Shown here in pieces: positions 1 to 56,668 of a stretch of 64,000 nt of DNA. A program made the position numbers and the translations under genes. Source of the DNA: Escherichia phage vB_EcoM-UFV06; the sequence record OP555980.1, one strand, 5' to 3'. The notes under the pieces are model-generated. The model saw only the letters and a program-made list of their open reading frames with translations, had not been told where the DNA came from and made no database searches. Position 1 is the first letter of the stretch. Each line of letters begins with the position of its first letter.

Positions 1-1
1 T

Positions 2-262
2 AGACCACCAATGTCTAAAGAACACAGAAATAATATCTCAAACGGGCTTAAAGCAATCGTTCTTGAAGAAACATCCTGCGAATTCTGCGGAATGATAGGC
101 AAGAAATGCGTTATCGCAGCGCATAGAAATTTCTGCAAGAAAAATCCAAATGGACGCAAGAAAACTGAAAAGACTGGTACTTGCGTCCATTGTGGTAAAG
201 TTACCACTTTCGGAAATTTATCAAGATGGCATAATGATAACTGTAAATATAAACTTAGCTAA
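2..262 (+). CDS. Partial ORF, frame open to window edge: putative homing-endonuclease-like C-terminal DNA-binding module
   Basis: Only plus-strand ORF in the minus-strand early region, converging on the gene 46 stop; SKEHRNNISNGLK resembles a NUMOD3-type motif; two CxxCG...H.N.C zinc-ribbon-like repeats. Confidence 0.3.
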   Translation, partial: RPPMSKEHRNNISNGLKAIVLEETSCEFCGMIGKKCVIAAHRNFCKKNPNGRKKTEKTGTCVHCGKVTTFGNLSRWHNDNCKYKLS

Positions 263-1943
263 TCTTAGCTAAACTAAATCTACCAACTTTTTCCATCTGA
301 ATATGCTGACCATATTCTTGTGGGTCATGGTCTTTATGTGAAATTATGAAGAAGTTGGTATCCTTCAAACCATCTAAAATTTTAGCTACATTTTTAATAC
401 CTTCAGCATCAAATGCACCGTCATACACTTCATCAAGAAATAAACAACTTATTTTAACACCTGAAACTTTTTCAGCAATATCACGCCAAGTAAATAAAAG
501 AGCAATATCAATTCGCGCTTTTTCACCTTGACTGAATGAAGCATAACTAAAATCTTCACGACCACGGGATTTAATTGTCTCATTAAATTCTTCATCTAAT
601 GTAAACACATAATCCGCTTCCATTATTTTAAGATAATGGTTAATCTGCTTATTAAATAATGGAATGTACTTTTTAATAATAGCACCTTTAATACCAGAAT
701 CTTTGAGCATATCAGTCAAAATTCCTCGGTGGTATTTTTCCATTACTAAATTAGTTTTTGTCTTAACAATTTTATCAAGTTCTTCTTGAAGCAGTGCTAT
801 TTCATCAGCATGGTCAATAAACTCAGAAGATGCTTTTTCTATAGCCGCTTTAACCTTTTTAGCTTTATCTACTGCTGCGATCAGAGATTGCTTTTTATTG
901 CGAATATCATTTGCCAACGACTGCTGGGTTTTAATATTATCTCGGTATTCATCAACAAGAACTTTTAAATTATCACGATGTGTTGAAAGATGTTCAAACG
1001 AATGCGTGCATTCAGAAACTTTATCTTTAATTTTAGAAACAACTTTATCACCGGAACTTAATTGTGACAAACAGGTTGGACATAATCCACCTTCGTGATA
1101 CATATTAATGACTTTATTATACGAGTCAATTTTTGATTTAATTAAAACTGCTTCTTGACCGATTTTATTAAATGCATCAGTCGGGTCTTCATCTAAAACA
1201 ATATTAACTAATCTTTCATTAGCTTCTTCTATTTCCGATTTTAGCGTTCTAGCTTCTTTTGCCAAATCATCATACATATTTTGAAGACGAGTAAGGTTGT
1301 CACCCGTTAATTTTTTCTGGCGTTCAACGTTATCATTATATATTTTAATTTGTTGGATAATACTATCTTTTTTAACATCAAGCACTTGGTTTTGTGAATT
1401 TAATTCACGTATTAGTGCTTTATTAAGCTTATCCATTTCAGCTAATGTTCCTACCTCGAGCAGGTCTTCCACAAGCTTTCTTCGCGCAGGGGTCGACAAA
1501 CCCATGAAAGGGGTATACCCTGCTGTACCAAGGACAACAATCTGCTTGAAACTGGCATATGACATTCCGATAAGCTGTTCAAATTCTGCTTGGAAATCTT
1601 TACTGCTGGCAGATTCATTAAGACGTGTACCGTTAACGGTGATTTCGAAAACGTTTGGTTTTTGTCCTCTTTTGATATAATACTTTTTCTCATCATATTC
1701 CATCCACAGTTCAACTAAAAGTTCTTTCTTATTTGTGCTGTTTATTAATTGACCTTTCTTTACATCACGAAATGGCTTGCCAAAAAGCCCAAATGTGATG
1801 GCTTCTAACATAGTAGACTTACCACCGCCATTTCGTCCAGTAATAAGAGTTTTTTGAACCTTATCTAATTGAATGTCAATAGGATTTCCACCTACTGACA
1901 TTATATTTTGATACCTAACTCGGTTTAGTTTAAAATTCTTCAC
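255..1943 (-). CDS. 46: Recombination endonuclease subunit gp46 (Rad50/SbcC-like ATPase)
   Basis: 562 aa; Walker A GRNGGGKST; long coiled coils with CPTC hook; D-loop LFLDEV; apparent GTG start; synteny with 47. Confidence 0.9.
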   Translation of the reverse strand: MKNFKLNRVRYQNIMSVGGNPIDIQLDKVQKTLITGRNGGGKSTMLEAITFGLFGKPFRDVKKGQLINSTNKKELLVELWMEYDEKKYYIKRGQKPNVFEITVNGTRLNESASSKDFQAEFEQLIGMSYASFKQIVVLGTAGYTPFMGLSTPARRKLVEDLLEVGTLAEMDKLNKALIRELNSQNQVLDVKKDSIIQQIKIYNDNVERQKKLTGDNLTRLQNMYDDLAKEARTLKSEIEEANERLVNIVLDEDPTDAFNKIGQEAVLIKSKIDSYNKVINMYHEGGLCPTCLSQLSSGDKVVSKIKDKVSECTHSFEHLSTHRDNLKVLVDEYRDNIKTQQSLANDIRNKKQSLIAAVDKAKKVKAAIEKASSEFIDHADEIALLQEELDKIVKTKTNLVMEKYHRGILTDMLKDSGIKGAIIKKYIPLFNKQINHYLKIMEADYVFTLDEEFNETIKSRGREDFSYASFSQGEKARIDIALLFTWRDIAEKVSGVKISCLFLDEVYDGAFDAEGIKNVAKILDGLKDTNFFIISHKDHDPQEYGQHIQMEKVGRFSLAKIS

Positions 1944-2203
1944 AAAAGATTCCTTTTAATGTATCTTTTAGACCATTCTATCATATCATCATAATCTAAA
2001 AAGTATTCATCAAATTCAGCCATGCAAACAACACCTTGTGCTGCTTTTGATGTGATATAAATTATTCCAACATATCTAGAATCTTCTTCGGTATAATCAA
2101 TATTTGCTATGAATTCATCATTAATGTCAAATGTCGAAAACTTCACAGTATGCATCCTTAATACAAGATACAGCCATATCTTGTAATGATTTAGGTGTAT
2201 CAT
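1940..2203 (-). CDS. Hypothetical small protein (87 aa)
   Basis: ORF abutting the gene 46 start; ATG start. Confidence 0.35.
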   Translation of the reverse strand: MIHLNHYKIWLYLVLRMHTVKFSTFDINDEFIANIDYTEEDSRYVGIIYITSKAAQGVVCMAEFDEYFLDYDDMIEWSKRYIKRNLL

Positions 2204-2390
2204 TATCTAAAATGTTGAAGTTAAAAGATACAGCCCAATCTGTACAGACCGTAACCTTTTTAATACAATTATCTTCAACCTCTAACGGTTCAAACCAATA
2301 TTCAATAATTTCTTTATGCCCAATATCATCTTTTACTTCGCATTCAAAATGCTGACTCATCATAACATTTTTAAATTCATCAAAAGTCAT
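2127..2390 (-). CDS. Hypothetical small protein (87 aa)
   Basis: ATG overlaps the gene 47 stop (ATGA-type coupling). Confidence 0.4.
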   Translation of the reverse strand: MTFDEFKNVMMSQHFECEVKDDIGHKEIIEYWFEPLEVEDNCIKKVTVCTDWAVSFNFNILDNDTPKSLQDMAVSCIKDAYCEVFDI

Positions 2391-3406
2391 TGTGTTGCCT
2401 CTACATATAGCTGGTTTGCATATTGAATAAGTGCTTCACGATCAGAATCAGTGATGTCTGGAATTGCATTAATGTATTCTTCCATCAACGTCTGAAGAGA
2501 TTGAACTTCAACTTCTTCACTGTCATCTGACTCGACAGAGTTATCAATTTTTGACACAACTCGTAATGAATGCACAACTTTTTCTAGTTCAGATTCGAAC
2601 TTCGTCAGATTTTTGTCTACTTCAGTTACTATAACACGTACTGATAGATTTGTAAAATCTTTATAGTCAATTTTTCCTTTAAATGGATAATGAATTCTAC
2701 GATGCCAGGTAGTATTGTTTGGAATAAATTCCATTCGTTCTGTTTCTGTATCAAACATCCAGAACCCACGAGGGTCATTCTCGTCACCTGCAGTTAGTGT
2801 CCATGGTGTCCCAATATATCTGACGTTAGCAGCCTCAGAGATAGTATGGAAGTGACCAGACCACACTTCTTTATAAGTCTTAAGGAAATCAGGTTCAAGA
2901 CCATGAGATTTCATTCCTTTATAAAAATAAAATCCGTTCAGTTCCCAGTGACCGACGCAAAAAGAAGCAGATGAAGTTTTGATGTGCTCAAGAATTTCAC
3001 CAGTATTTTCTTCACACATCCAAGGAATTAAATCAATTAAACATCCGTCAAAATCTACTGTAGTAGGCTTATCATATACTTTAACATTAGGATATTTAGC
3101 CAAAAGCTCAGTAGAAGCATTTGGATGCATTACATTTTTATAGTGGAGATCGTGATTTCCTACAATAGTATGTAGGGTAATACCAGCATCATCAAGCATT
3201 TGAACTATTTCACGGGCAAACTCCATAGTTTTATGCGTGATCGCTTTTCGCACATCAAAAATATCACCGTATTGAATCCAAGTAGTAATTCCATTTTTCT
3301 TAGAATATTCTATCGCTTGCTTAATTCCATCAATTTGAATACCGCGAATCCACTCATCATCGGCTTTAACGCCTAAATGCCAATCACCTAAATTTAAAAT
3401 TTTCAT
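2387..3406 (-). CDS. 47: Recombination endonuclease subunit gp47 (Mre11/SbcD-like nuclease)
   Basis: 339 aa; calcineurin-like phosphoesterase motifs GDWH, GNHD, GHFH. Confidence 0.9.
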   Translation of the reverse strand: MKILNLGDWHLGVKADDEWIRGIQIDGIKQAIEYSKKNGITTWIQYGDIFDVRKAITHKTMEFAREIVQMLDDAGITLHTIVGNHDLHYKNVMHPNASTELLAKYPNVKVYDKPTTVDFDGCLIDLIPWMCEENTGEILEHIKTSSASFCVGHWELNGFYFYKGMKSHGLEPDFLKTYKEVWSGHFHTISEAANVRYIGTPWTLTAGDENDPRGFWMFDTETERMEFIPNNTTWHRRIHYPFKGKIDYKDFTNLSVRVIVTEVDKNLTKFESELEKVVHSLRVVSKIDNSVESDDSEEVEVQSLQTLMEEYINAIPDITDSDREALIQYANQLYVEATQ

Positions 3407-3566
3407 ATATCAAGAACCGTCATTGAAATGCAAAATAAAATTATTGAAATAAAACCATCTGGAGTACTAAAGAATCCAACCCAACACGCTCTAGTGAAAA
3501 GATAAAACGCGAGAAAAAGTATCACATATCCAAGAAATATCATTATATCAAACTCCATATAAAGCT

Positions 3567-3584
3567 AAAGGGCCGAAGCCCTTT
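3567..3584 (-). terminator. UUCG-tetraloop hairpin overlapping the a-gt stop codon
   Basis: aaagggc-cgaa-gcccttt inverted repeat; U-run weak. Confidence 0.4.
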
Positions 3585-4785
3585 ATTTTGTAATAATGTC
3601 AAACTGCTCTTTAAAGCAGAAGCTTGAATCTTGGTGCTGATACAAAAATTCATAAGCTTTTTCGCGTTCACGGTCATAAAGAGTTCGGTCAGATGACAGT
3701 TCTTTAATACGTTCAAATGTTGATTCCATGTCATTTTCATCAAACCAAATGATACCGCTATCATGCGAGGTCAAAGGAGTATTATCAACACGGAATTTTA
3801 AATTTTCGCCTGTAGATTTCCAAAATACCGGAATTGTTCCACATGCACCAAGCTCGAGATGAGTATATTCTAAAGAACGTTGTAGATATTTTTTGTCCAA
3901 CTTACTCAGCTGATAACCAAATCCGGATTTACTCATGCGTTCAAGCATTTCGCTATTTACATAACGGTCAAGAATTTGCGTTGGCAAATTAGGAGCAATT
4001 TTAATTTGGTCTACTTGATGAAGACGATAATACTCGTATGGAATTCCTTTTTCTTTAATAGGAATGAACGCTGGAGAACGTTCCAGACCTTCCATAATAG
4101 TACTTAGTCCTGCAGGTTTAAGATGTTTTTCATGAAAATCAAACATCTGATAAAAACCTTTCCATGTAGTAGTACGACCAATCCAACGATTGATATTCAT
4201 GTTAATTTCAGAAACATCTTTCCAGTAGGTTGATCGAACCTTTGCAATATCCATCGGAGGCTGAAAGTTATATACTGTCGGTGCTTCTTCAATATCATCA
4301 AACAGAGAAACTGTTTCAGGATACCATTCTTTCATCAGAACTTTATTAAAATCGCCATTATCAGAATGGCTAAAAATAACATCAGCTCGACGAACAGTTT
4401 CTTCTAATCCCAAATTTCGACGCAAAGAAAGAGAAGAATGGTCATGTTGATAAACTACAACACGAACAGAAGGTTTAATGTTATCAATAATTTTTTTATA
4501 GTTATTAATAGTGTCTTCTTCAACTGAAGTAGCAGGAACTGAATTGATAATTAGAATATCACAATCATTTACCAGCTTAAGTGTTTTATCGTATTCTTTT
4601 GCCAATAAAACCGGAATTGAAAATGATTTATAATCATGCGCGCAATTACGAGTAAATGATTTATCTTTAGCATAAACCAAAGTTACTTCATGACCATTTT
4701 TAATAAACCAATCACGTTGCTCAAGAGAAAATTTAGTTACACCACAACCTTCAAGACCTCGAGCCATAAAAATACATACTTTCAT
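3583..4785 (-). CDS. a-gt: DNA alpha-glucosyltransferase
   Basis: 400 aa; matches my recollection of T4 AGT length and sequence; position between 47 and 55. Confidence 0.85.
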   Translation of the reverse strand: MKVCIFMARGLEGCGVTKFSLEQRDWFIKNGHEVTLVYAKDKSFTRNCAHDYKSFSIPVLLAKEYDKTLKLVNDCDILIINSVPATSVEEDTINNYKKIIDNIKPSVRVVVYQHDHSSLSLRRNLGLEETVRRADVIFSHSDNGDFNKVLMKEWYPETVSLFDDIEEAPTVYNFQPPMDIAKVRSTYWKDVSEINMNINRWIGRTTTWKGFYQMFDFHEKHLKPAGLSTIMEGLERSPAFIPIKEKGIPYEYYRLHQVDQIKIAPNLPTQILDRYVNSEMLERMSKSGFGYQLSKLDKKYLQRSLEYTHLELGACGTIPVFWKSTGENLKFRVDNTPLTSHDSGIIWFDENDMESTFERIKELSSDRTLYDREREKAYEFLYQHQDSSFCFKEQFDIITK

Positions 4786-4809
4786 TTAATATCCTCTTTG
4801 TTTTGGTTT

Positions 4810-4835
4810 ATTTTACCAAAAATTTATAAAGCAAT
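4810..4835 (-). promoter_or_regulatory. Candidate MotA-dependent middle promoter upstream of a-gt
   Basis: Minus-strand ATTGCTTTA (MotA box) then 11 bp then TAAAAT -10; about 25 bp upstream of the a-gt ATG. Confidence 0.4.
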
Positions 4836-4855
4836 ATAGGAGCCGAAGCTCCTAT
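4836..4855 (-). terminator. UUCG-tetraloop hairpin
   Basis: ataggagc-cgaa-gctcctat perfect 8-bp stem. Confidence 0.4.
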
Positions 4856-5197
4856 CCGCATAATACACCATACAAAGGCTCATTAGAGCTTCTAAATTTT
4901 ATGCGCTTATATGTTATAGTTCCTTCTGCTTTAGCTTTATCATGAGACTCTTTAAAGCGTCTCATCATTTCCTTTTTAGAGGAACGAATTTTATAATCTA
5001 TTTCAGAAGTCTGGGTGTTCATCTTTCATAACTGCCACCATTTTTTGACTTGATAAGAATCAACCCACACTTTCATATTAGGGTCTGCTCTTACAATAGG
5101 AGGATTAACTTCTTTAATTGAACTATCATGGTATTCTTTTTCAGAAATTTTCACACAAAGATGACCATTCAAAGATTCAGTAAATCCTGCATTAATT

Positions 5198-5515
5198 TTA
5201 AGACGCTTGAATTTTACGTGTGTAAGCATCAATCATATCCTCAATCTGCGATCTAGTAGTCTTCCAAAGAATACTAATGAGTTCATCGTTATATGGCTGT
5301 TTTAGAATATCCCGACTTTTCTTGATAGCATATTCGTATTGAGCAAAATTATTATTTTCAGCTGCAATCTGAGCGTGCTTATAAAGACGATTCAGTTCGC
5401 GTTTGTTTTTAGACAATAACTTATTTGCTTTTCTTTCTGCTTCAAGACGGTTCTTTTCTTCAATAGAAGAAATAAGCTTTTCCACTTCATCATTAATTTC
5501 GGGTTTATCAGTCAT
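5198..5515 (-). CDS. Hypothetical protein (105 aa)
   Basis: ORF between a-gt and 55. Confidence 0.45.
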   Translation of the reverse strand: MTDKPEINDEVEKLISSIEEKNRLEAERKANKLLSKNKRELNRLYKHAQIAAENNNFAQYEYAIKKSRDILKQPYNDELISILWKTTRSQIEDMIDAYTRKIQAS

Positions 5516-5516
5516 A

Positions 5517-5735
5517 TTATTTCTCTAATATAAAATAAAAATCATCATCTGTTAAATGATACCGATAGTTTAATTCTACACCATTAGATTTAAAAGCGGT
5601 ATCATACGGATTTTCTGGATCAATATCAATGTCAAGAGCTAAAACTTCCCTGAGATACATTTTAAGTAAATAGGGAATAGCTTCAACTTCAGGTATTTCT
5701 TCCAAGAATCCGGAGAGGTTAATCGTTAGCCTCAT
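5517..5735 (-). CDS. Hypothetical protein (72 aa)
   Basis: ORF abutting the gene 55 stop. Confidence 0.4.
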
Positions 5736-6276
5736 ATAAAAAATCCAAACTAGGAGAATCGTCTACAACACTTTTCTTTTCAGCCCCCGGTGTTCTATAG
5801 GTTGATTCTTCGTAATGCGTCATTTTATCGTAGATGTCTTGAATAAAAGTTTCATCTACTAACGCAACCATATCGTCGTCACGGCTGTCATAGACATTGT
5901 GAACGAAGTAACTATATTTCTTTGCAACTTCCTTACGTTCTTTTTTAATACGTTGGACGAATGCATTAAAACAAGCTTGAGTTATATACGCATGTGGGTT
6001 TTTATATTTCGTTTCATCAAAATTATGAAGCCCCTTAATAGAAGCTTCTATACCATCTGCAATCATTTCTTGTTTCCAAGATTGGGTGTATCCTGAAAAG
6101 TTGAAACGTTTAGATAAGCCTTCTGCAATAAGCATAATGGCTAATCCGATAGTATCATTCTGACGAACTACTTTATTTGGGTCTTTATTATTTGCTAATT
6201 CTGTTTTCCAATCAATAATAGCTTGTAAAAGCTCTTTATTGTTTACGTAATTATATTTAGGCTTAGTTTCTGACAT
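5719..6276 (-). CDS. 55: Late-transcription sigma factor gp55
   Basis: 185 aa from ATG at 6276 with GAGGTG Shine-Dalgarno; N-terminus [23 protein letters not shown] as recalled for T4 gp55. Confidence 0.9.
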
Positions 6277-9119: not shown

Positions 9120-9590
9120 TTAATCATGTTTCCACACCCCATCGGTATTTGACCAAAGTCGCTGATTATCTGATCCTCGCCACAGCTTTTTAGTCGGAAG
9201 ATTTTTCTCATACTTCCCATCAATAATAACATCAACATATTTAAGCATTTCTAGTTGTTTAATATCTTCAAACTTATATCCTGTCCACAACCAAATGCTT
9301 TTATTAGGATAAAGATTTTTAATAGTTTGAACCACAGAGTGAATCACGTCTCTGTTATCAGGATAGAGAGGGTCACCTCCAGTTATAGTTAATCCTTCTA
9401 TATAATCATTATTCAAACATTCAATTAATTGTTCTAGTGTTTCACCAGTGAATGGAACGCCATTTCTAGCATTCCATGTTGATTTATTATAACACCCTTC
9501 ACATTTATGCAAACAACCTGTAACGAAAAGAACGACCCTGCATCCAGGGCCATTCACAAAATCACAGGGATAAAATCTATCGTAATTCAT
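9120..9590 (-). CDS. nrdG: Anaerobic ribonucleotide reductase activating protein (radical SAM)
   Basis: 156 aa; CLHKCEGC = Cx3Cx2C radical-SAM cluster motif; ATGA overlap with the nrdD stop. Confidence 0.9.
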   Translation of the reverse strand: MNYDRFYPCDFVNGPGCRVVLFVTGCLHKCEGCYNKSTWNARNGVPFTGETLEQLIECLNNDYIEGLTITGGDPLYPDNRDVIHSVVQTIKNLYPNKSIWLWTGYKFEDIKQLEMLKYVDVIIDGKYEKNLPTKKLWRGSDNQRLWSNTDGVWKHD

Positions 9591-30659: not shown

Positions 30660-31133
30660 TTATTTGAATGATTTAACGTACTGAATAGAACCTTTACTAT
30701 TCACAAAGGCAATTTTACCATTTTTGTTATACATAGTAGCAGTACGTTGATAGCCATAAGTTTGTTTACCAGATTGATAACCAACTAATGCGAAATTATC
30801 TTCACCCATTTTATTCTGTTTAGCGCGAATGCGTTCATGACCATGTGCCATAAGAACCTTAGCATCACCAGTTGCAATGGACCGACGAGTTTTTTCATCT
30901 TCAACTGTATTAACAAAGTCGTCAAATGAATCAAATTTAGCATGAGATTTATTATACAGTTTTCCATCTACTGCATAATTATATCCTTGTACATCCATCT
31001 CAACTTCTGTACCATCATCTAATACCGCAGTAATTTTCTGTCCTTTTTTAAATTTCAAAAGATCAGTAAAAGATTCAGCAATAATTTGAGAATTAATAGC
31101 TGCTTCAGTAATAAATTCTTTATACGTTTTCAT
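30660..31133 (-). CDS. Internal (capsid-targeted) protein, ip3-position
   Basis: N-terminus MKTYKEFITE matches the capsid-targeting-sequence pattern with an I-x-E cleavage site; 157 aa. Confidence 0.55.
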   Translation of the reverse strand: MKTYKEFITEAAINSQIIAESFTDLLKFKKGQKITAVLDDGTEVEMDVQGYNYAVDGKLYNKSHAKFDSFDDFVNTVEDEKTRRSIATGDAKVLMAHGHERIRAKQNKMGEDNFALVGYQSGKQTYGYQRTATMYNKNGKIAFVNSKGSIQYVKSFK

Positions 31134-31149
31134 GTGTATCCTTTAATTT

Positions 31150-31467
31150 TTATTCTTTAGGGAAGTTTTTAGAATATGCATCATAAAGCTTATTTCCAAT
31201 ACGGCGGAAAACTCTAGCCGCAAAACGATTTTCTGGGTTTTTAATCATGATTTGCATCATATAAGTACCCGCGTCAGAAAGAGCTTCTTCATAGTACCCG
31301 TTAATTTCTTTAAGAGTCCTACGTTTACCACCAGGACCATCAACAGTGATTTTCCATTTACCTGTAGAAGTGCGACTTGGCGGTTCAACTTGTTCAATCC
31401 AGATATAACCGCCTTCTACACGCTGTCCTGCAACAGATTCTGCAATAAATTCTTTATACGTTTTCAT
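31150..31467 (-). CDS. Internal (capsid-targeted) protein, ip2-position
   Basis: N-terminus MKTYKEFIAE; 105 aa, basic. Confidence 0.55.
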   Translation of the reverse strand: MKTYKEFIAESVAGQRVEGGYIWIEQVEPPSRTSTGKWKITVDGPGGKRRTLKEINGYYEEALSDAGTYMMQIMIKNPENRFAARVFRRIGNKLYDAYSKNFPKE

Positions 31468-34830: not shown

Positions 34831-35304
34831 TTATTTGATTTGTTTAGCAGACCAAATGCGGTCTTTAATAATTTTTTGGATGTCTTCAACATACTCAAGA
34901 GAATGAGCATGTGGGTTATCTTTAAAGCTATGAGCACGAGCTAGCTTTTGGCCTTCAGTTTTGATTACTAAAAGCTCTTTAAGGATAGCTTCATATTTGG
35001 AGATAATTCCTTTAACGATATTTTTTTCTTGTGCGACTTTAGGATCTGCTTTAGGAGCAGGTTTACCCGAAGCCTTTGCAAAAGCAGCGCCAGTAGCAAC
35101 TAAACTTTTCCAGGCCATACTAACTGCATTTCCCGTAAATCCTTCCGCTTTCATGTCGCGTGCGAACTGGAATCGTGATTCATCAGAAGCATCTTTGTAA
35201 GAATATTTACCCGCTGCAATGGCTGCTTTTGCGACAGCTTGAATTTCGGTGCTAGATGCTTCATTTAACACCGCTTCATTTAAAAATTGAGTATATGATT
35301 TCAT
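34831..35304 (-). CDS. Putative capsid-targeted internal protein (157 aa), function unknown
   Basis: N-terminus MKSYTQFLNE resembles the capsid targeting sequence with an L-x-E site; late promoter upstream; flanked by duplicated terminators. Confidence 0.5.
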   Translation of the reverse strand: MKSYTQFLNEAVLNEASSTEIQAVAKAAIAAGKYSYKDASDESRFQFARDMKAEGFTGNAVSMAWKSLVATGAAFAKASGKPAPKADPKVAQEKNIVKGIISKYEAILKELLVIKTEGQKLARAHSFKDNPHAHSLEYVEDIQKIIKDRIWSAKQIK

Positions 35305-36054: not shown

Positions 36055-36130
36055 TGGTCGAGGCAGTAGGGATCGAACCTACGACCCAGGACTTAGAAGG
36101 TCCTTGCTCTTCCTTCTGAGCTATGCCCCG
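36055..36130 (-). tRNA. tRNA-Arg (anticodon UCU)
   Basis: Hand-folded cloverleaf; anticodon loop CUUCUAA; CCA encoded. Confidence 0.8.
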
Positions 36131-36134
36131 TAAT

Positions 36135-36210
36135 TGGGGTGACCGATGGGAGTCGAACCCATGACTACGAGAATCACAATCTCGAGTTCTACCAACTGAA
36201 CTACGGCCAC
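36135..36210 (-). tRNA. tRNA-His (anticodon GUG)
   Basis: Cloverleaf; anticodon stem CGAGA/UCUCG, loop UUGUGAU; discriminator C73; no encoded G-1. Confidence 0.75.
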
Positions 36211-36324
36211 ATTAATACCTACTCCAACAATCATGATGTCTTCACACGAAATTAAGAGAAGAGTGATCAGTTCAACCCCTATAATCGCGTCAAGTAGATA
36301 TTAATGTGACAGTTGTCACAAATT

Positions 36325-36399
36325 TGGCGGACGTGATAGGATTCGAACCTATAACCAATCGCTTAACAGGCGATCGCTCTGCCATTGAGCTACACATCC
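36325..36399 (-). tRNA. tRNA-Asn (anticodon GUU)
   Basis: Cloverleaf; anticodon stem AUCGC/GCGAU, loop CUGUUAA. Confidence 0.75.
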
Positions 36400-36403
36400 A
36401 AAT

Positions 36404-36490
36404 TGGTGGGGAGTGATGGAGTCGAACCACCCGAGTCGCAATGACAATGAATTTACAGTCCACACCGCTACCTCTACGGGATAACTCCCC
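36404..36490 (-). tRNA. tRNA-Tyr (anticodon GUA), class II, probable
   Basis: 87 nt with long variable arm; GACUGUAAAU anticodon region as in bacterial tRNA-Tyr; anticodon stem has two G-U pairs. Confidence 0.55.
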
Positions 36491-36496
36491 TTAATT

Positions 36497-36571
36497 TGGT
36501 GGCCCTGGGTGGAATTGAACCACCATCTGGCGATTATGAGTCGCTTGCTTGAACCTTCCAGCTACAGGGCC
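36497..36571 (-). tRNA. tRNA with anticodon CAU (Ile2 or Met)
   Basis: Cloverleaf; loop CUCAUAA; T4 tRNA-Ile is reported to use a modified CAU-type anticodon. Confidence 0.7.
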
Positions 36572-36572
36572 T

Positions 36573-36648
36573 TGGTGCTGATTGACGGAATCGAACCGCC
36601 GACATCCTCATTACAAGTGAGGTGCTCTACCTACTGAGCTAAATCAGC
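36573..36648 (-). tRNA. tRNA-Thr (anticodon UGU)
   Basis: Cloverleaf; loop CUUGUAA. Confidence 0.8.
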
Positions 36649-36653
36649 AAAGC

Positions 36654-36743
36654 TGGCGGAGGCGATAGGATTTGAACCTATGAATCGCCGGAGCGACTGC
36701 CGGTTTTCAAGACCGGTGCATTAAACCACTCTGCCACGCCTCC
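36654..36743 (-). tRNA. tRNA-Ser (anticodon UGA), class II
   Basis: 90 nt; anticodon stem CCGGU/ACCGG, loop CUUGAAA; long variable arm. Confidence 0.8.
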
Positions 36744-36745
36744 AG

Positions 36746-36819
36746 TCTCCATACAAGGATTTGAACCTTGGACCTCCTGATCCCAAATCAGGCGCTCTAC
36801 CAAACTGAGCTACACGGAG
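36746..36819 (-). tRNA. tRNA-Pro (anticodon UGG)
   Basis: Cloverleaf; loop UUUGGGA; CCA not encoded. Confidence 0.75.
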
Positions 36820-36829
36820 TAAATTAAAT

Positions 36830-36903
<74 letters not shown>

Positions 36904-36908
36904 AAATT

Positions 36909-36995
36909 TGGTGCGAGAAGTGGGACTCGAACCCACAAGGAAATCATTCCGCAGCATTTTAAGTGCTGTGCCTTTACCAATTTGACCATTCTCGC
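36909..36995 (-). tRNA. tRNA-Leu (anticodon UAA), class II
   Basis: 87 nt; anticodon stem CAGCA/UGCUG, loop CUUAAAA. Confidence 0.8.
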
Positions 36996-36996
36996 G

Positions 36997-37069
36997 CTGG
37001 GAATAAAGGATTCGAACCTTTGCATCTAGCAGTCAAAGTGCTATGCCTTACCAACTTGGCTAATTCCCA
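36997..37069 (-). tRNA. tRNA-Gln (anticodon UUG)
   Basis: Cloverleaf; anticodon stem UAGCA/UGCUA, loop CUUUGAC; CCA not encoded. Confidence 0.75.
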
Positions 37070-37680: not shown

Positions 37681-37964
37681 GCTGCATTAATATACGTTTT
37701 CTGAATGCATTCAAGACCTAAAGGATTCTTGAAAATATCATATTCAAGAGGACCTTTTTCTGTTTCAATAAAGAAATCAAAATTTACTGTATTAAATTTA
37801 CGGTCTTCCTTCACTAATTTAACTTGAGAAGATGAACGGTCAACATAAACCTTTTCAACTTCAAAACATGTTAAAACGCCATAATCATCAATCAAGGCTT
37901 TAGCCGCGTCTTGATCATATTTATATCCATTTTCAATGGATGATACTTTCGCATAAAGAATCAT
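37674..37964 (-). CDS. Hypothetical protein (96 aa)
   Basis: ORF. Confidence 0.4.
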   Translation of the reverse strand: MILYAKVSSIENGYKYDQDAAKALIDDYGVLTCFEVEKVYVDRSSSQVKLVKEDRKFNTVNFDFFIETEKGPLEYDIFKNPLGLECIQKTYINAAW

Positions 37965-37966
37965 TA

Positions 37967-38371
37967 TTAACCTTTATCAACAATAGTATGTGTATGGGCA
38001 TTTACGATTTGCCACCAGTCAAAACTATCGCCAAATCGTTTTGATTTATTGTCTTCAATAATTTGGCGTAATTCATCTTCTGTTTCAGCATACGCAATCA
38101 AATCATCATATCCACCGCAAGGATAGTAATTATCGCCTGCGAACAAAAGAAAATTTACTTTAGATGGGTCTACATAATAATGCTCTTTAGGATATTTAGT
38201 TCCTTTCCAATCAGTTACTTCAACATAACGATAAGAAAATCCATTTTTACTTTCAACCCAACTCCACGCTTCAAAAGGAGTATTAAAAACTCTATCAGGT
38301 ATTAAATTACCTTCAAAATGAGAAGGATTTGCATAATCCCCAGCATAAACATAATATTCGTTAATATTCAT
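37967..38371 (-). CDS. Hypothetical protein (134 aa)
   Basis: ORF. Confidence 0.45.
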   Translation of the reverse strand: MNINEYYVYAGDYANPSHFEGNLIPDRVFNTPFEAWSWVESKNGFSYRYVEVTDWKGTKYPKEHYYVDPSKVNFLLFAGDNYYPCGGYDDLIAYAETEDELRQIIEDNKSKRFGDSFDWWQIVNAHTHTIVDKG

Positions 38372-38557
38372 TTATTCACCTTTAGAAATTTTATCCATAA
38401 CAATAGCGATTAAACCAATTAAAAATGCTACTACAAGTGAAAAAACATTTTCTGCTGTAGTCAATAATCCGCATATAAATCCAACAAACATTGAAAAACT
38501 AAAAGCGGAAGCAGAAATTGCAATAGCAACATTTCGAATTAATTCACAACGTTTCAT
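38372..38557 (-). CDS. Hypothetical small membrane protein (61 aa)
   Basis: Hydrophobic throughout; early promoter upstream. Confidence 0.4.
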   Translation of the reverse strand: MKRCELIRNVAIAISASAFSFSMFVGFICGLLTTAENVFSLVVAFLIGLIAIVMDKISKGE

Positions 38558-38585
38558 TTTATTCTCCTCGGTAGTTGATAGGGTA

Positions 38586-38614
38586 ATAGTATCACAACTA
38601 AAACCCTATGTAAA
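38586..38614 (-). promoter_or_regulatory. Early promoter (sigma70-type)
   Basis: Minus-strand TTTACA, 17 bp, TG-n-TACTAT; GAGGAG Shine-Dalgarno downstream. Confidence 0.6.
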
Positions 38615-38633
38615 CAACTTTGTGAAATATTTA

Positions 38634-38918
38634 TTACAAAAGATTTTTAGCAATAATTTTAAGCTGAGCTACTGAAATATGCTTGGCTTTAAACAAAGCA
38701 GTTTCTTCAGCAGGGGAGATAACGATTGTAGCACCATCTTTCTTAGCGGACCATCCATCACCCAGGTAAACAGTACCTTTGACTTCTTCGCCATCAACCA
38801 GGCTAATCATCGGTTTACCTTCACGTCCTTTGTTTGCTTTAATAACTTCAGAAGTAAGGGTCGCTTCAGTCAAAGTAGAAGCGTTAGTGGTTGAAGTGAA
38901 TTCTTGATAAGTTTTCAT
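38634..38918 (-). CDS. ipI: Internal protein I
   Basis: 94 aa; N-terminus MKTYQEF capsid-targeting sequence; position upstream of 57B. Confidence 0.7.
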   Translation of the reverse strand: MKTYQEFTSTTNASTLTEATLTSEVIKANKGREGKPMISLVDGEEVKGTVYLGDGWSAKKDGATIVISPAEETALFKAKHISVAQLKIIAKNLL

Positions 38919-42411: not shown

Positions 42412-43002
42412 ATGCTCTTTACATTTTTTGATCCGATTGAATATGCGGCCAAAACGGTGAATAAAAACGCGCCGACTATTCCTATGACAGATATTTTTAG
42501 AAACTATAAAGACTATTTCAAACGTGCTCTTGCGGGATACCGCTTACGTACTTATTATATTAAAGGTTCACCTCGTCCCGAAGAATTAGCAAATACTATA
42601 TATGGAAATCCACAGTTGTATTGGGTTTTATTGATGTGTAATGATAATTATGATCCATATTATGGATGGATTACTTCACAAGAAGCTGCTTATCAAGCAT
42701 CTATACAAAAATACAAAAACGTAGGTGGAGACCAAATAGTATATCATGTAAATGAGAACGGTGAAAAATTTTATAATTTAGTATCATACGATGATAATCC
42801 ATATGTTTGGTATGACAAAGGTGATAAAGCTAGAAAATATCCTCAATATGAAGGAGCACTTGCTGCTGTTAATACGTATGAAGCTGCTGTTCTTGAAAAT
42901 GAAAAACTTCGTCAAATAAAAATAATAGCAAAATCAGACATCAATTCATTTATGAACGACCTTATACGTATAATGGAGAAATCTTATGGAAATGATAAGT
43001 AA
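42412..43002 (+). CDS. 53: Baseplate wedge protein gp53
   Basis: 196 aa; synteny. Confidence 0.85.
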   Translation: MLFTFFDPIEYAAKTVNKNAPTIPMTDIFRNYKDYFKRALAGYRLRTYYIKGSPRPEELANTIYGNPQLYWVLLMCNDNYDPYYGWITSQEAAYQASIQKYKNVGGDQIVYHVNENGEKFYNLVSYDDNPYVWYDKGDKARKYPQYEGALAAVNTYEAAVLENEKLRQIKIIAKSDINSFMNDLIRIMEKSYGNDK

Positions 43003-44713
43003 TAACCTTAATTGGTTTGTTGGTGTTGTTGAAGATAGAATGGACCCATTAAAATTAGGTCGTGTTCGTGTTCGTGTGGTTGGTCTGCATCCACCACAAA
43101 GAGCACAAGGTGATGTAATGGGTATTCCAACTGAAAAATTGCCATGGATGTCAGTTATTCAGCCTATAACTTCGGCAGCTATGTCTGGAATTGGAGGTTC
43201 CGTTACTGGACCGGTAGAAGGAACTAGAGTTTATGGTCATTTTTTGGACAAATGGAAAACTAATGGAATTGTTCTTGGCACGTATGGTGGAATAGTTCGC
43301 GAAAAACCGAATAGACTTGAAGGATTTTCTGACCCGACTGGGCAATATCCTAGACGTTTAGGAAATGATACTAACGTACTAAACCAAGGCGGAGAAGTAG
43401 GATATGATTCGTCTTCTAACATTATCCAAGATAGTAACTTAGACACTGCAATAAATCCTGATGATAGACCACTATCAGAGATTCCAACTGATGATAATCC
43501 AAATATGTCAATGGCTGAAATGCTTCGCCGTGATGAAGGATTAAGACTAAAAGTTTATTGGGATACCGAAGGATATCCGACAATTGGTATTGGTCATCTT
43601 ATCATGAAGCAGCCAGTTCGTGATATGGCTCAAATTAATAAAGTTTTATCGAAACAAGTTGGTCGTGAAATTACTGGAAACCCAGGTTCTATTACAATGG
43701 AAGAAGCGGTAACTTTATTTGAACGCGATTTGGCTGATATGCAACGTGACATTAAATCACATTCTAAAGTAGGACCAGTCTGGCAAGCTGTCAACCGTTC
43801 TCGTCAAATGGCATTAGAAAATATGGCATTTCAGATGGGTGTTGGCGGTGTAGCTAAATTTAACACAATGTTAACTGCTATGTTAGCAGGAGATTGGGAA
43901 AAAGCATATAAAGCTGGTCGTGATTCATTGTGGTATCAACAAACAAAAGGCCGTGCATCCCGTGTTACCATGATTATTCTTACGGGGAATTTGGAATCAT
44001 ATGGTGTTGAAGTGAAAACTCCAGCTAGGTCTTTGTCGGCAATGGCTGCTACTGTGGCGAAGTCTTCTGATCCAGCTGACCCTCCTATTCCAAATGACTC
44101 AAGAATTTTATTCAAAGAACCAGTTTCTTCATATAAAGGCGAATATCCTTATGTGCATACAATGGAAACTGAAAGTGGACATATTCAGGAATTTGATGAT
44201 ACCCCTGGGCAAGAACGATATAGATTAGTTCATCCAACTGGAACTTATGAAGAAGTATCACCGTCAGGGAGAAGAACAAGAAAAACTGTTGATAATTTGT
44301 ATGATATAACCAACGCTGATGGTAATTTTTTGGTAGCCGGTGATAAAAAGACTAACGTCGGTGGTTCAGAAATTTATTATAACATGGATAATCGTCTTCA
44401 CCAAATAGATGGAAGCAATACAATATTTGTACGTGGCGATGAAACTAAGACGGTTGAAGGTAATGGAACTATCCTAGTTAAAGGTAATGTTACTATTGTA
44501 GTTGAAGGTAATGCTGACATTACAGTTAAAGGAGATGCTACTACGTTAGTTGAAGGTAATCAAACTAATACAGTAAATGGAAATCTTTCTTGGAAAGTTG
44601 CTGGGACAGTTGATTGGGACGTTGGTGGTGATTGGACAGAAAAAATGGCATCTATGAGTTCTATTTCATCTGGTCAATACACAATTGATGGATCGAGGAT
44701 TGACATTGGCTAA
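42986..44713 (+). CDS. 5: Baseplate hub/cell-puncturing protein gp5 with lysozyme domain
   Basis: 575 aa; internal lysozyme domain MLRRDEGLRLKVYWDTEGYPTIGIGHL; C-terminal VEGN beta-helix repeats. Confidence 0.95.
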   Translation: MEMISNNLNWFVGVVEDRMDPLKLGRVRVRVVGLHPPQRAQGDVMGIPTEKLPWMSVIQPITSAAMSGIGGSVTGPVEGTRVYGHFLDKWKTNGIVLGTYGGIVREKPNRLEGFSDPTGQYPRRLGNDTNVLNQGGEVGYDSSSNIIQDSNLDTAINPDDRPLSEIPTDDNPNMSMAEMLRRDEGLRLKVYWDTEGYPTIGIGHLIMKQPVRDMAQINKVLSKQVGREITGNPGSITMEEAVTLFERDLADMQRDIKSHSKVGPVWQAVNRSRQMALENMAFQMGVGGVAKFNTMLTAMLAGDWEKAYKAGRDSLWYQQTKGRASRVTMIILTGNLESYGVEVKTPARSLSAMAATVAKSSDPADPPIPNDSRILFKEPVSSYKGEYPYVHTMETESGHIQEFDDTPGQERYRLVHPTGTYEEVSPSGRRTRKTVDNLYDITNADGNFLVAGDKKTNVGGSEIYYNMDNRLHQIDGSNTIFVRGDETKTVEGNGTILVKGNVTIVVEGNADITVKGDATTLVEGNQTNTVNGNLSWKVAGTVDWDVGGDWTEKMASMSSISSGQYTIDGSRIDIG

Positions 44714-44723
44714 TATACTTCCA

Positions 44724-45242
44724 ATGAGCGCTGATTTAGGAGAATCCATGGAAGGTTCTTCTATCGACGTCACCTTTACCGCTCAATTAGAAACAGGTGA
44801 AACGTTAGTATCTATAAATATAACTAGTTACGAAGAAACTCCTGGGGTTTTAGTAGAAGAAAGTCGCTTATATGGAACATATGAATCTGTATTTGGTTTC
44901 GGAAATGACGCGTTGAAATATCGTTTAGGTGATGAATTTAAAACTGCTGCTTCATGGGAAGAACTTCCTACTGATTCTGACACCCAGTTGTATTTGTGGA
45001 AAGCTCCTCAAAATCTCCAGAAGACATTCACTTACGAAGTAACATTAATATATGACTACCAAGAACAAAGTGAATCTGGAGGTTCTGGCAGTAATTCTAG
45101 GTCATCTTCTGATACTACTGAACCGACAGATCCTCCTGCTCCGGTAAGAAAAACTCTAGTTAAAAATTATACTAAAACTATAGTTGGAAATTGGAGTCGT
45201 TGGGCTAATAAATTAAGAAGCTATGTGTATGAGAGGTCATAG
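44724..45242 (+). CDS. Hypothetical protein (gp5.1-position)
   Basis: ORF between 5 and 5.4; start uncertain. Confidence 0.45.
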   Translation: MSADLGESMEGSSIDVTFTAQLETGETLVSINITSYEETPGVLVEESRLYGTYESVFGFGNDALKYRLGDEFKTAASWEELPTDSDTQLYLWKAPQNLQKTFTYEVTLIYDYQEQSESGGSGSNSRSSSDTTEPTDPPAPVRKTLVKNYTKTIVGNWSRWANKLRSYVYERS

Positions 45243-45536
45243 ATGTCAGGATTAAGTTATGATAAATGTGTTACTGCTGGTCATGAAGCATGGCCTCCAA
45301 CAGTTGTGAATGCTACACAAAGTAAAGTATTCACTGGAGGAATTGCTGTTCTAATAGCAGGCGATCCAATTACAGAACATACAGAAATCAAAAAGCCATA
45401 TGAAACACATGGCGGAGTGACACAACCTAGAACTTCTAAGGTATATGTCACAGGAAAGAAAGCTGTTCAAATGGCTGATCCAATATCATGCGGTGATACT
45501 GTGGCTCAGGCATCATCTAAAGTATTCATTAAATAG
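45243..45536 (+). CDS. 5.4: Spike-tip PAAR-like protein gp5.4
   Basis: 97 aa; position after gene 5. Confidence 0.75.
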
Positions 45537-45544
45537 GATTTAAA

Positions 45545-47527
45545 ATGGCAAATACCCCTGTAAATTATCAATTAACAAGAACAGCAAATGCTATTCCCGA
45601 GATATTCGTCGGGGGTACGTTTGCTGAAATAAAACAAAACCTCATTGAATGGCTTAATGGCCAAAATGAATTTTTGGATTACGATTTTGAAGGCTCAAGA
45701 TTAAACGTTCTGTGCGACCTTTTAGCTTATAATACATTGTACATTCAGCAGTTTGGTAATGCTGCTGTGTATGAAAGCTTTATGCGTACTGCTAACTTAC
45801 GAAGTTCAGTTGTTCAGGCTGCACAAGATAATGGATATTTACCTACTTCAAAATCCGCTGCACAGACCGAAATTATGTTAACGTGTACAGATGCATTGAA
45901 TAGAAATTACATTACTATTCCTCGCGGTACTCGCTTTTTAGCATATGCAAAGGATACTTCTGTTAATCCATATAACTTCGTTTCTACCGAAGACGTTATT
46001 GCTATTCGTGATAAAAATAACCAATATTTTCCACGATTAAAATTAGCCCAGGGACGTATAGTAAGAACTGAAATCATTTATGATAAATTAACACCTATTA
46101 TCATTTATGACAAAAACATAGATAGAAACCAAGTTAAACTATACGTTGATGGAGCAGAATGGATTAACTGGACAAGAAAGTCAATGGTTCATGCTGGTTC
46201 TACATCAACAATTTACTACATGCGTGAAACTATTGATGGAAACACTGAATTCTATTTTGGCGAAGGTGAAATTTCTGTTAATGCGGCAGAAGGAGCTCTA
46301 ACTGCTAACTATATTGGAGGTCTTAAACCTACCCAGAACTCTACTATTGTTATTGAGTACATCAGTACTAACGGTGCAGATGCGAATGGTGCAGTCGGAT
46401 TTTCATACGCAGATACATTAACAAATATAACTGTCATCAATATTAACGAAAATCCAAATGATGACCCAGATTTTGTTGGGGCAGATGGCGGTGGCGATCC
46501 AGAAGATATTGAGCGTATTCGCGAATTGGGTACTATTAAACGCGAAACCCAGCAACGCTGCGTAACTGCGACCGACTATGATACATTCGTCTCAGAAAGA
46601 TTCGGTTCTATTATTCAAGCTGTTCAGACTTTCACTGATTCTACTAAACCTGGTTATGCATTTATTGCTGCTAAACCTAAATCAGGACTATATTTAACTA
46701 CTGTGCAACGTGAAGATATTAAAAATTATCTCAAAGACTATAATTTAGCGCCTATTACACCGTCAATTATTTCTCCTAATTATCTTTTTATTAAGACTAA
46801 TTTAAAAGTCACATATGCTTTAAATAAACTACAAGAATCCGAACAGTGGCTTGAAGGTCAAATAATTGATAAAATTGATCGCTATTATACCGAAGATGTA
46901 GAAATTTTTAACTCATCTTTTGCCAAGTCTAAGATGTTAACTTACGTAGATGATGCAGATCATTCTATCATTGGTTCATCAGCGACTATTCAAATTGTTC
47001 GTGAAGTACAAAACTTCTATAAAACGCCTGAAGCAGGTATTAAATACAATAATCAAATAAAAGATCGTTCTATGGAATCTAATACGTTTTCATTTAATTC
47101 TGGACGAAAGGTTGTAAATCCTGATACCGGTTTAGAAGAAGATGTATTATATGACGTTCGTATAGTATCAACAGACCGAGATTCTAAAGGAATTGGTAAA
47201 GTTATTATTGGTCCATTTGCTTCTGGCGATGTTACAGAAAATGAAAACATTCAGCCGTATACAGGCAACGATTTTAACAAATTAGCAAATTCTGATGGAC
47301 GCGACAAATACTATGTTATCGGTGAAATAAATTATCCAGCTGACATGATTTATTGGAATATCGCTAAAATTAATTTAACATCTGAAAAATTTGAAGTTCA
47401 GACTATTGAATTATATTCTGACCCAACCGATGATGTTATCTTTACTCGCGATGGTTCACTGATTGTATTTGAAAATGACTTACGTCCACAATACTTAACT
47501 ATCGATTTGGAGCCTATATCACAATGA
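45545..47527 (+). CDS. 6: Baseplate wedge protein gp6
   Basis: 660 aa; synteny. Confidence 0.9.
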   Translation: MANTPVNYQLTRTANAIPEIFVGGTFAEIKQNLIEWLNGQNEFLDYDFEGSRLNVLCDLLAYNTLYIQQFGNAAVYESFMRTANLRSSVVQAAQDNGYLPTSKSAAQTEIMLTCTDALNRNYITIPRGTRFLAYAKDTSVNPYNFVSTEDVIAIRDKNNQYFPRLKLAQGRIVRTEIIYDKLTPIIIYDKNIDRNQVKLYVDGAEWINWTRKSMVHAGSTSTIYYMRETIDGNTEFYFGEGEISVNAAEGALTANYIGGLKPTQNSTIVIEYISTNGADANGAVGFSYADTLTNITVININENPNDDPDFVGADGGGDPEDIERIRELGTIKRETQQRCVTATDYDTFVSERFGSIIQAVQTFTDSTKPGYAFIAAKPKSGLYLTTVQREDIKNYLKDYNLAPITPSIISPNYLFIKTNLKVTYALNKLQESEQWLEGQIIDKIDRYYTEDVEIFNSSFAKSKMLTYVDDADHSIIGSSATIQIVREVQNFYKTPEAGIKYNNQIKDRSMESNTFSFNSGRKVVNPDTGLEEDVLYDVRIVSTDRDSKGIGKVIIGPFASGDVTENENIQPYTGNDFNKLANSDGRDKYYVIGEINYPADMIYWNIAKINLTSEKFEVQTIELYSDPTDDVIFTRDGSLIVFENDLRPQYLTIDLEPISQ

Positions 47528-56659: not shown

Positions 56660-56668
56660 GGATTACAA

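Follow-up and report, generated by a model that had tools for sequence, protein, structure and literature searches.

A probable free-standing Mob-like HNH homing endonuclease gene with predicted zinc fingers beside gene 46 of a T4-like coliphage

Introduction

The free-standing homing endonucleases of the Seg and Mob families of phage T4 generally target the conserved gene adjacent to their own (PMC2988022 Table 1). In the Mob family the characterised member is MobE, which nicks one specific strand of the neighbouring nrdB gene, with a conversion that is consistent with double-strand-break repair (PMC2790892). Another enzyme relevant here is I-TevIII, the HNH endonuclease of the nrdB group I intron of phage RB3; DNA binding by this enzyme depends on its two fingers, which are of the form CX2CX12-13HX3C and bind zinc; the finger of I-TevI is a linker or ruler, not a DNA binder (PMC1865063). 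Two mob-like HNH homing endonuclease genes (HEGs) were counted in phage RB32 by Petrov et al. 2010 (PMC2993671).

We report here a comparative analysis of a gene that is cut by the left edge of a 64,000-nucleotide stretch of T4-like phage DNA (hereafter the window). Elements of this kind are known, and public records already annotate this one. Judged from its sequence and its conservation, it is very probably an intact, free-standing HEG encoding a Mob-like HNH enzyme.

Results

The window opens with an ORF on the plus strand (2-262), in which frame 2 is open from base 2 to a TAA stop at 260-262 and which translates as RPPMSKEHRNNISNGLKAIVLEETSCEFCGMIGKKCVIAAHRNFCKKNPNGRKKTEKTGTCVHCGKVTTFGNLSRWHNDNCKYKLS. 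All the remaining long ORFs in positions 1-6000, including gene 46, gene 47, a-gt and gene 55, are on the minus strand, which bears out the description, in a first-pass annotation of this DNA, of a plus-strand ORF open at the window edge and converging on gene 46. Gene 46 (255-1943, minus strand), which codes for the Rad50/SbcC-like recombination nuclease subunit of 562 aa, is both the neighbour and the presumed target gene of the HEG. The stop codons of the two genes overlap by 8 bp (255-262) at the palindrome TTAGCTAA, and this overlap is contained within a tandem repeat, CTTAGCTAA-T-CTTAGCTAA, at 254-272.

Short as it is, the window fragment has a marked signature. The pattern C..C-x(9-15)-H...C occurs just twice in the six frames of the 64-kb window, both times within this ORF, and cysteine accounts for 7 of the 86 residues of the fragment (8.1%) versus 1.0% in the long ORFs of the window. 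Moreover, the 86-aa fragment alone matches PHROG 655 'homing endonuclease' (E 5.7e-08) and PHROG 27406 (E 5.4e-07), a family that, from its length, would be the truncated 97-aa I-TevIII of T4. Taken together, these matches, the cysteine content and the rarity of the pattern argue that the motifs of the ORF did not arise by chance. In Pfam, the fragment returned only DUF6013, PknG_rubred and C1_1, at noise level (E 0.12 to 2.4), and no match to NUMOD3 (PF07460) at E <= 10.

The complete gene was found in closely related genomes. Positions 1-1200 of the window are 100% identical to Escherichia phage vB_EcoM-UFV09 (MZ291552.2; Tequatrovirus) and to its siblings UFV05, UFV10 and UFV11, and 98-99% identical to RB32, RB51 and about 50 further Tequatrovirus records. 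UFV09 has at this place a complete CDS of 717 nt and 238 aa, on the plus strand between 45.2 and 46 (MZ291552.2 31557-32273, equivalent to 4546-5262 of our locus L001), annotated as 'homing endonuclease'; the counterpart in RB32 is RB32ORF054w, a 'putative site-specific intron-like DNA endonuclease, similar to mobB'. The first 455 nt of the gene fall outside the window, which begins at codon 153 of 238, and window 2-262 (plus strand) thus corresponds to the C-terminal third of the gene, that is its last 86 codons and the TAA. The ORF looks like a fragment because the window edge cuts a complete gene. The match of the full 238-aa protein to PHROG 655 is far stronger (E 8.6e-69), and it also matches PHROG 12324 (2.4e-08) and PHROG 27406 (9.6e-11). 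Along with the annotated CDS of UFV09 and the Mob-type HNH domain described below, the PHROG 655 match upholds the first-pass assignment of the ORF to a homing endonuclease gene. A literature search on the ORF name retrieved no paper and no biochemical study.

The first-pass annotation had pointed to the DNA upstream of the window as the place where an HNH or a GIY-YIG nuclease might be encoded, and what is encoded there, in residues 1-100 of the protein (sequence MNYKLIYEKLI...ESHHIIPRCLNGSDDASNLVDLTPEEHYVAHQ), is an HNH (beta-beta-alpha-metal) domain like those of the T4 Mob enzymes, with the HNH motif ESHHIIPRCLNGSDDASNLVDLTPEEHYVAH; such motifs combine, on a beta-beta-alpha element, a His acting as general base, an Asn with a structural role and a His that binds the metal. 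BLASTP aligned the protein with T4 MobB (44% identity over aa 1-110, 3e-29), MobE (43%, 4e-29), MobD (53%, 5e-23) and MobC (37%, 6e-22), the nuclease domain being the sole aligned part in every case. Across 62 aligned homologues, residues E24, H26, H27, N41, H50 and H54 do not vary. With the full protein the Pfam HNH family (PF01844) reached 16.9 bits (E 0.007), below its gathering cut-off of 21.4, and 36 of the 62 homologues match this family (E < 0.01). An AlphaFold2 model of the full protein, built on the 62-sequence alignment (pLDDT 93.7), comprises an HNH core, two isolated helices and three fingers, the core containing a beta-beta-alpha element at aa 24-60 (strands 24-27 and 42-45, helix 47-60). 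Other searches were less informative: NCBIfam gave only a sub-threshold match to the IscB HNH family (23 bits, cut-off 175), the PDB searched by sequence yielded nothing meaningful (E >= 0.17), and Foldseek found no match in the PDB at E <= 0.001 with either the full model or the model of the window fragment, its top, non-significant matches being generic zinc-finger arrays and assorted HNH domains.

The remainder of the protein is a tail of small modules, in the order NUMOD3-like helix SQETRKKMSDAVA, finger 1, NUMOD3-like helix SKEHRNNISNGLK, finger 2 and finger 3. The first helix (aa 103-115), which scores 12.6 bits with Pfam NUMOD3, below the cut-off of 20.4, and finger 1 (aa 124-144, plus strand, x12 spacing) are encoded just upstream of the window; the second helix and fingers 2 and 3 are inside it. 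This second helix (window 14-52, plus strand; aa 157-169) is predicted as a helix by AlphaFold2 at aa 158-170 with pLDDT > 90. In the homologues, SEETRxKIS NUMOD3 repeats stand at the aligned position, and 45 of the 62 match Pfam NUMOD3 (PF07460; best 1.7e-29), so that its resemblance to NUMOD3 is backed by the family context. Finger 2, CEFCGMIGKKCVIAAHRNFC (window 77-136, plus strand; aa 178-197), is of the I-TevIII type, CEFC-x11-H-x3-C, and finger 3, CVHCGKVTTFGNLSRWHNDNC (window 182-244, plus strand; aa 213-233), reads CVHC-x12-H-x3-C. All three predicted fingers fit C-x2-C-x11-12-H-x3-C, the x11 spacing of finger 2 being one residue below the published range for I-TevIII. Residues 174-238 are colinear with residues 207-268 of RB3 I-TevIII (BLASTP, 36% identity, 5e-08), and C178/C181 and C213/C216 align with the mutated I-TevIII residues C211/C214 and C242/C245, which bind zinc and on which DNA binding depends; finger 2 is in this way paired with I-TevIII finger 1, and finger 3 with I-TevIII finger 2.

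The ligands of finger 2 are invariant among the orthologues, and those of finger 3 (C213, C216, H229 and C233) among all 62 homologues, finger 3 being on this evidence the most conserved putative DNA-binding module of the family. Each zinc module has, in the AlphaFold2 models, a strand-strand-helix arrangement with the His-x3-Cys pair on the helix, and the window fragment modelled alone shows the same structural elements (pLDDT 89). The modules are thus predicted to be beta-beta-alpha CCHC fingers and not zinc ribbons, whose ligand pairs come from two beta-hairpin knuckles, and in Pfam none of the zinc-ribbon families came near threshold for the full protein. Of the motifs recognised by the first-pass annotation, the NUMOD3-like helix and the putative zinc-binding modules stand, and the zinc-ribbon fold does not. 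More distant homologues have runs of bona fide NUMOD3 repeats in place of the mid-portion of the tail and retain only the last finger, suggesting that the tail is a shuffled set of small DNA-binding modules.

The protein was found at 95% identity or more in 59 Tequatrovirus records, and the window fragment also in 59. Set against the total of about 504 records with a match to most of window 1-3400, this means that roughly 12% (about one in eight) of the T4-like coliphage records carry the element. Orthologues of 238-239 aa occupy the same place in other genera, in convergent orientation directly downstream of gene 46, on the 45.2/rpbA side, with identities of 64% in Dhakavirus MX01, 58% in Mosigvirus 348Ecol098PP, and 42% in Slopekvirus phT4A and in Klebsiella phage Lemur. 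T4-like phages of Enterobacter and Cronobacter give similar matches beside gene 46, annotated as 'Mob-like HNH homing endonuclease'. This common location suggests a lineage that is old and faithful to its site.

Comparison with HEG-minus genomes delimits a cassette of 786 bp (L001 4489-5274), the right-hand part of which is window 1-274 and which replaces a 72-bp spacer of T4 (NC_000866 33244-33315). Homology with T4, Shfl2 and vB_Eco_EL ends at L001 4488, in codon 2 of 45.2, and returns at L001 5275, that is window 275, the very position at which every HEG-minus Tequatrovirus of the spread sample begins to match. The junction between genes 45 and 46 is indeed polymorphic, as the first-pass annotation had anticipated; the direct neighbour of the HEG on that side is 45.2 and not gene 45. 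The cassette changes the start codon of 45.2 (GTG for ATG) and supplies the end of gp46, ...GRFSLAKIS versus ...GRFTVMV in T4. On the gene 46 side there is a dense, divergent tract at the 3' end of the gene (window 281-534, minus strand) with 48 substitutions in 254 bp (19%) relative to the HEG-minus phages, where the sliding identity falls to 80-88% versus 97-100% elsewhere. The codons for the signature, Walker-B and H-loop motifs fall within the tract, and about 20 residues in this C-terminal part of gp46 are altered. On the other side there is no comparable divergence, the last 488 bp of the 45.2 flank being 99.6%, 99.2% and 97.5% identical to T4, EL and Shfl2, respectively.

The divergent tract is common to all 10 HEG-plus phages examined, among which only the three most distal markers vary. 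In the phage collection, its allele is found at 95% identity or more in 59 records, at 90-95% in none and at 80-90% in 471; the carriers of the tract allele (59) are thus as many as the carriers of the HEG (59), the two sets being compared as totals. We looked for a donor of the tract in gene 46 of Dhakavirus, Mosigvirus and Slopekvirus, which is not closer (64-72% nucleotide identity), and, as said, found no record at 90-95% identity.

The T4 late-promoter consensus TATAAATA is present at L001 4505-4512 (plus strand), about 40 bp before the ATG of the HEG, with an AAGGA (GGA) ribosome-binding site between the two. It is the single copy in the 11.2-kb locus; as 1.8 copies are expected by chance in 11 kb, its weight comes from its position and its conservation. 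The same sequence recurs about 40 to 50 bp before the ATG of the Dhakavirus and Mosigvirus orthologues, and CTTAAATA is found in Slopekvirus. Given that no gene lies upstream on the HEG strand, the HEG is likely to be transcribed late, from a promoter of its own. Folding of the 5' leader revealed no structure beyond chance (z = 0.15) and no evident hairpin of the I-TevI type sequestering the ribosome-binding site. A scan of the cassette for sigma-70 promoters and terminators gave no more promoters than shuffled sequence and no terminator. Antisense within the HEG, a candidate MotA box followed by a -10-like motif, TGCTTTA-N12-TATTAT (window 30-55, minus strand), is retained in all ten Tequatrovirus copies compared; among shuffled sequences, 6% also give a match. 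This motif may replace a middle-promoter-like motif that was lost with the T4-type spacer.

The first-pass annotation had also remarked on the apparent absence of T4 endonuclease genes from the rest of the window, and our data agree. In tblastn searches, T4 MobB, MobC, I-TevII, MobD, SegB and SegC have no match in the window, from which the corresponding T4 segments 37818-38678, 42917-43517, 44815-45849, 56450-57257, 71169-72013 and 80218-80774 are missing, and nrdD is a single uninterrupted CDS of 1818 nt. Conversely, six ORFs from window-specific segments were scanned against the PHROGs and all fell into non-nuclease families of unknown function, and the gene at 2-262 is the only HEG found in the first 50 kb of the window. 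The HEG complement therefore differs from that of T4, as had been proposed: six T4 HEGs of the region are absent and one other is present.

Discussion

Three other readings of this gene have to be weighed. The first-pass annotation had taken it for a possible remnant, that is a DNA-binding tail left after loss of the nuclease domain, in the manner of the I-TevIII relic. One can see why: the window itself shows only the DNA-binding tail, an ATG at window 11 (Met156) would give an ORF of 83 aa, and the T4 nrdB intron keeps such a relic, the 97-aa I-TevIII. In the source genome, however, the ORF is uninterrupted, with its 238 aa and a complete HNH domain, and its length is 237-239 aa in every copy or orthologue examined. 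The dN/dS is 0.05-0.08 among four Tequatrovirus copies, which differ mostly by synonymous changes, and all the HNH residues and zinc ligands have been kept in four phage genera. Met156 is itself unconserved, being replaced by Leu in G4498 and by Ile or Leu in other genera; there is thus no conserved internal start and no case for a separate short protein, and we rejected an independent 83-aa product on this ground. We consider degeneration very improbable. The chances are slighter still that the gene encodes a GIY-YIG endonuclease of the Seg type, an idea to which the NUMOD3-like motif might lead. GIY-YIG enzymes, I-TevI among them, do contain NUMOD3 helices and zinc fingers (PMC2988022), and aa 155-173 are weakly similar to I-TevII (E 0.2), but the N-terminal domain is a Mob-type HNH and no GIY-YIG family came up in any profile search.

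A better contender, although still an unlikely one, is that the protein has been domesticated, a non-mobile HNH/zinc-finger protein being kept for the benefit of the phage, through exclusion of competitors or regulation of the 46-45.2 region. The strong purifying selection, the retention of orthologues at one site in four genera, the possible middle promoter for downstream genes embedded in the HEG, and the precedent of I-TevI, which moonlights as a repressor (PMC2988022), would all fit. Against this, the gene is patchy in Tequatrovirus (some 12% of records), its insertion/deletion boundaries are sharp and the divergent flank occurs in an equal number of records, which are the marks expected of an active or recently active HEG. 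Furthermore, excluding competitors by cutting their DNA would be the same biochemical act as homing.

If the gene is an intact HEG, as we favour, where would its product cut? We give an even chance, or slightly better, to a target that lies, in HEG-minus genomes, within the region equivalent to window 281-534. The substitutions of this tract in HEG-plus genomes are probably protective, which would make the tract both target and immunity region. Alternatively, the tract may have hitch-hiked along as part of the DNA of the donor lineage, with neither a target nor an immunity role.

We infer the following course of homing from the precedents of MobE, I-TevIII and the Seg enzymes. Late in a mixed infection, the enzyme would bind, through its helices and fingers, a long site at the 3' end of the T4-type gene 46 of a co-infecting phage that lacks the HEG, and the HNH domain would nick or cut the bound DNA. 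Recombination-dependent repair from the HEG-plus genome would then copy the cassette, together with the resistant gene 46 allele, into the recipient, and the substitutions of the tract would shield the carrier from self-cleavage. A HEG parted from its tract would cut its own genome, which would explain a linkage unbroken by recombination. The product of the presumed target gene, gp46, is the Rad50-like nuclease subunit that T4 needs for double-strand-break resection during homing. One might speculate further that the enzyme is active and represents an uncharacterised combination, in which a Mob-type HNH domain is joined to three CCHC fingers of the I-TevIII type interleaved with NUMOD3-like helices; that its site is in the codons of the gp46 ATPase motifs (signature, Walker B and H-loop); and that the cassette carries an antisense middle promoter of the MotA type (window 30-55) in place of the displaced one, and would hence be costly to lose. 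This fuller scenario is tentative, and as a whole we would lean against it rather than for it.

Beyond annotation, the import of the gene is modest: it is one more free-standing HNH HEG in a group of phages famous for them. It does nevertheless mean that the first 274 bases of the window, including the last codons of gene 46, are DNA of a mobile element. It also gives a concrete target prediction, the 3' 250 bp of gene 46, for an uncharacterised Mob-like enzyme, and it illustrates domain shuffling between Mob nucleases and the zinc-finger DNA-binding domain of I-TevIII. Finally, a differing HEG complement bears on marker exclusion when phages infect together, and on recombination boundaries in the Tequatrovirus phages used in therapy.

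How does the protein stand among known systems? The modelled window fragment shares with TRAF-type or C2HC fingers and with C2H2 arrays (TRAF6, CTCF) a beta-beta-alpha fold, CCHC ligands and a tandem arrangement; with Foldseek E-values of 0.03 or worse and no sequence relationship, this is an analogy of fold only. The homing endonucleases I-HmuI and I-TevI are modular, made like 'beads on a string' with NUMOD3 helices and, in I-TevI, a zinc finger. The present protein likewise has an extended tail of NUMOD3-type helices and small modules, but it is missing the helix-turn-helix module of these enzymes and has no significant structural match.

I-TevIII is closer: both proteins have their fingers behind an HNH domain, and the twin C-terminal fingers are common to the two. 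The HNH domains of the two do not align by BLASTP, and whereas I-TevIII, a dimerising enzyme of 269 aa, is intron-encoded, the present gene is free-standing and its product has a third finger. With the T4 Mob family (MobA-E), it is the N-terminal catalytic domain, MNYxxIY...ExHHIIPrcxGGxDdxxNLVxLTxxEHxxAH, that is shared, at 37-53% identity, as is a NUMOD3-like helix after the nuclease domain. The mob genes are likewise free-standing in spacers between conserved genes, where they are polymorphic for presence or absence. The C-terminal DNA-binding regions of MobB, MobC and MobD are unrelated to that of the present protein, with alignments confined to aa 1-70 to 1-134, and the sites differ, ours being 45.2/46. 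Lastly, mobE is promoterless and co-transcribed with nrdA, whereas the HEG described here is antiparallel to its neighbours and has a putative late promoter of its own.

The HEG and the junctions of gene 46

The homing endonuclease gene (HEG) and the convergent gene 46 meet at a tandem 9-mer, CTTAGCTAA-T-CTTAGCTAA (window 254-272), and both stop codons fall within the palindrome TTAGCTAA (window 255-262). The first copy of the 9-mer reads CTAGCTAA in most other HEG-carrying phages. The RB51 junction differs, with the HEG product ending in ...CKHKH and gp46 in ...SVATIN, and in Dhakavirus and Mosigvirus a GCCTC...GAGGC hairpin stands in place of the tandem 9-mer. We also noted that record PV654520.1 ('Pseudomonas phage vB_PSGBLB0006'), whose host is given as P. 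aeruginosa, shares 98% identity with this Tequatrovirus region, HEG included; its host assignment looks doubtful, or else the record is a contaminant.

Antisense within the HEG coding region lies TGCTTTA-N12-TATTAT (window 30-55, minus strand), matching the pattern of T4 middle promoters that depend on MotA. Among Tequatrovirus copies of the HEG, 10 of 10 keep this motif, and it is absent from the HEG orthologues of other genera; a MotA-type pattern also arises in about 6% of shuffles of the HEG cassette. In T4, the 72-bp spacer displaced by the cassette holds TGCTTTA-N11-TATAAT shortly upstream of 45.2 (position 4288 of locus L003, minus strand). The antisense motif in the HEG could be an embedded substitute promoter for 45.2/rpbA/45.

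The start codon of gene 46 (window 255-1943) is annotated inconsistently between records: the gene is 1647 nt long in UFV09 and several relatives, whereas in RB32, RB51 and G4498 and by ORF calling it begins at a GTG and has 1689 nt (562 aa). Several relatives, among them Aplg8, G28, RB51, T6, ECML-134 and Pu-Krd-SF6, have an additional 855-870 bp between genes 46 and 46.1 (3459-4200 in both L018 and L019, 6445-7309 in L009, all loci of other phages). The window phage lacks this insert, whose site would be at about 1940. It is unannotated in RB51 and labelled as a second homing endonuclease in some relatives, in which gene 46 thus has an HEG on each side.

Differences from T4 elsewhere in the window

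The first-pass annotation had pointed to the absence of T4 endonuclease genes (nrdD intron, mobD, segB), and this proved correct: all six T4 HEGs of the region, namely mobB, mobC, the nrdD intron with I-TevII, mobD, segB and segC, are missing (window 4786-4851, 9587-9590, about 21785 and 36130-36497). Only 66 bp separate a-gt from a-gt.2, and nrdD is intronless and overlaps nrdG.

Three minus-strand ORFs without a T4 match (window 30660-31467 and 34831-35304) start with MKTYKEFI... or MKSYTQFLNEA..., resembling the leaders at the N-termini of T4 internal proteins. As they stand in place of T4 denV-ipII-ipIII and neighbouring segments, the internal-protein-like gene set of this phage differs from that of T4.

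The tRNA cluster (window 36055-37069, minus strand) comprises 11 genes, compared with 8 in T4. Its tRNA-His, tRNA-Asn and tRNA-Tyr (window 36135-36490), between tRNA-Arg and a CAT-anticodon tRNA, lie exactly where T4 has segB.
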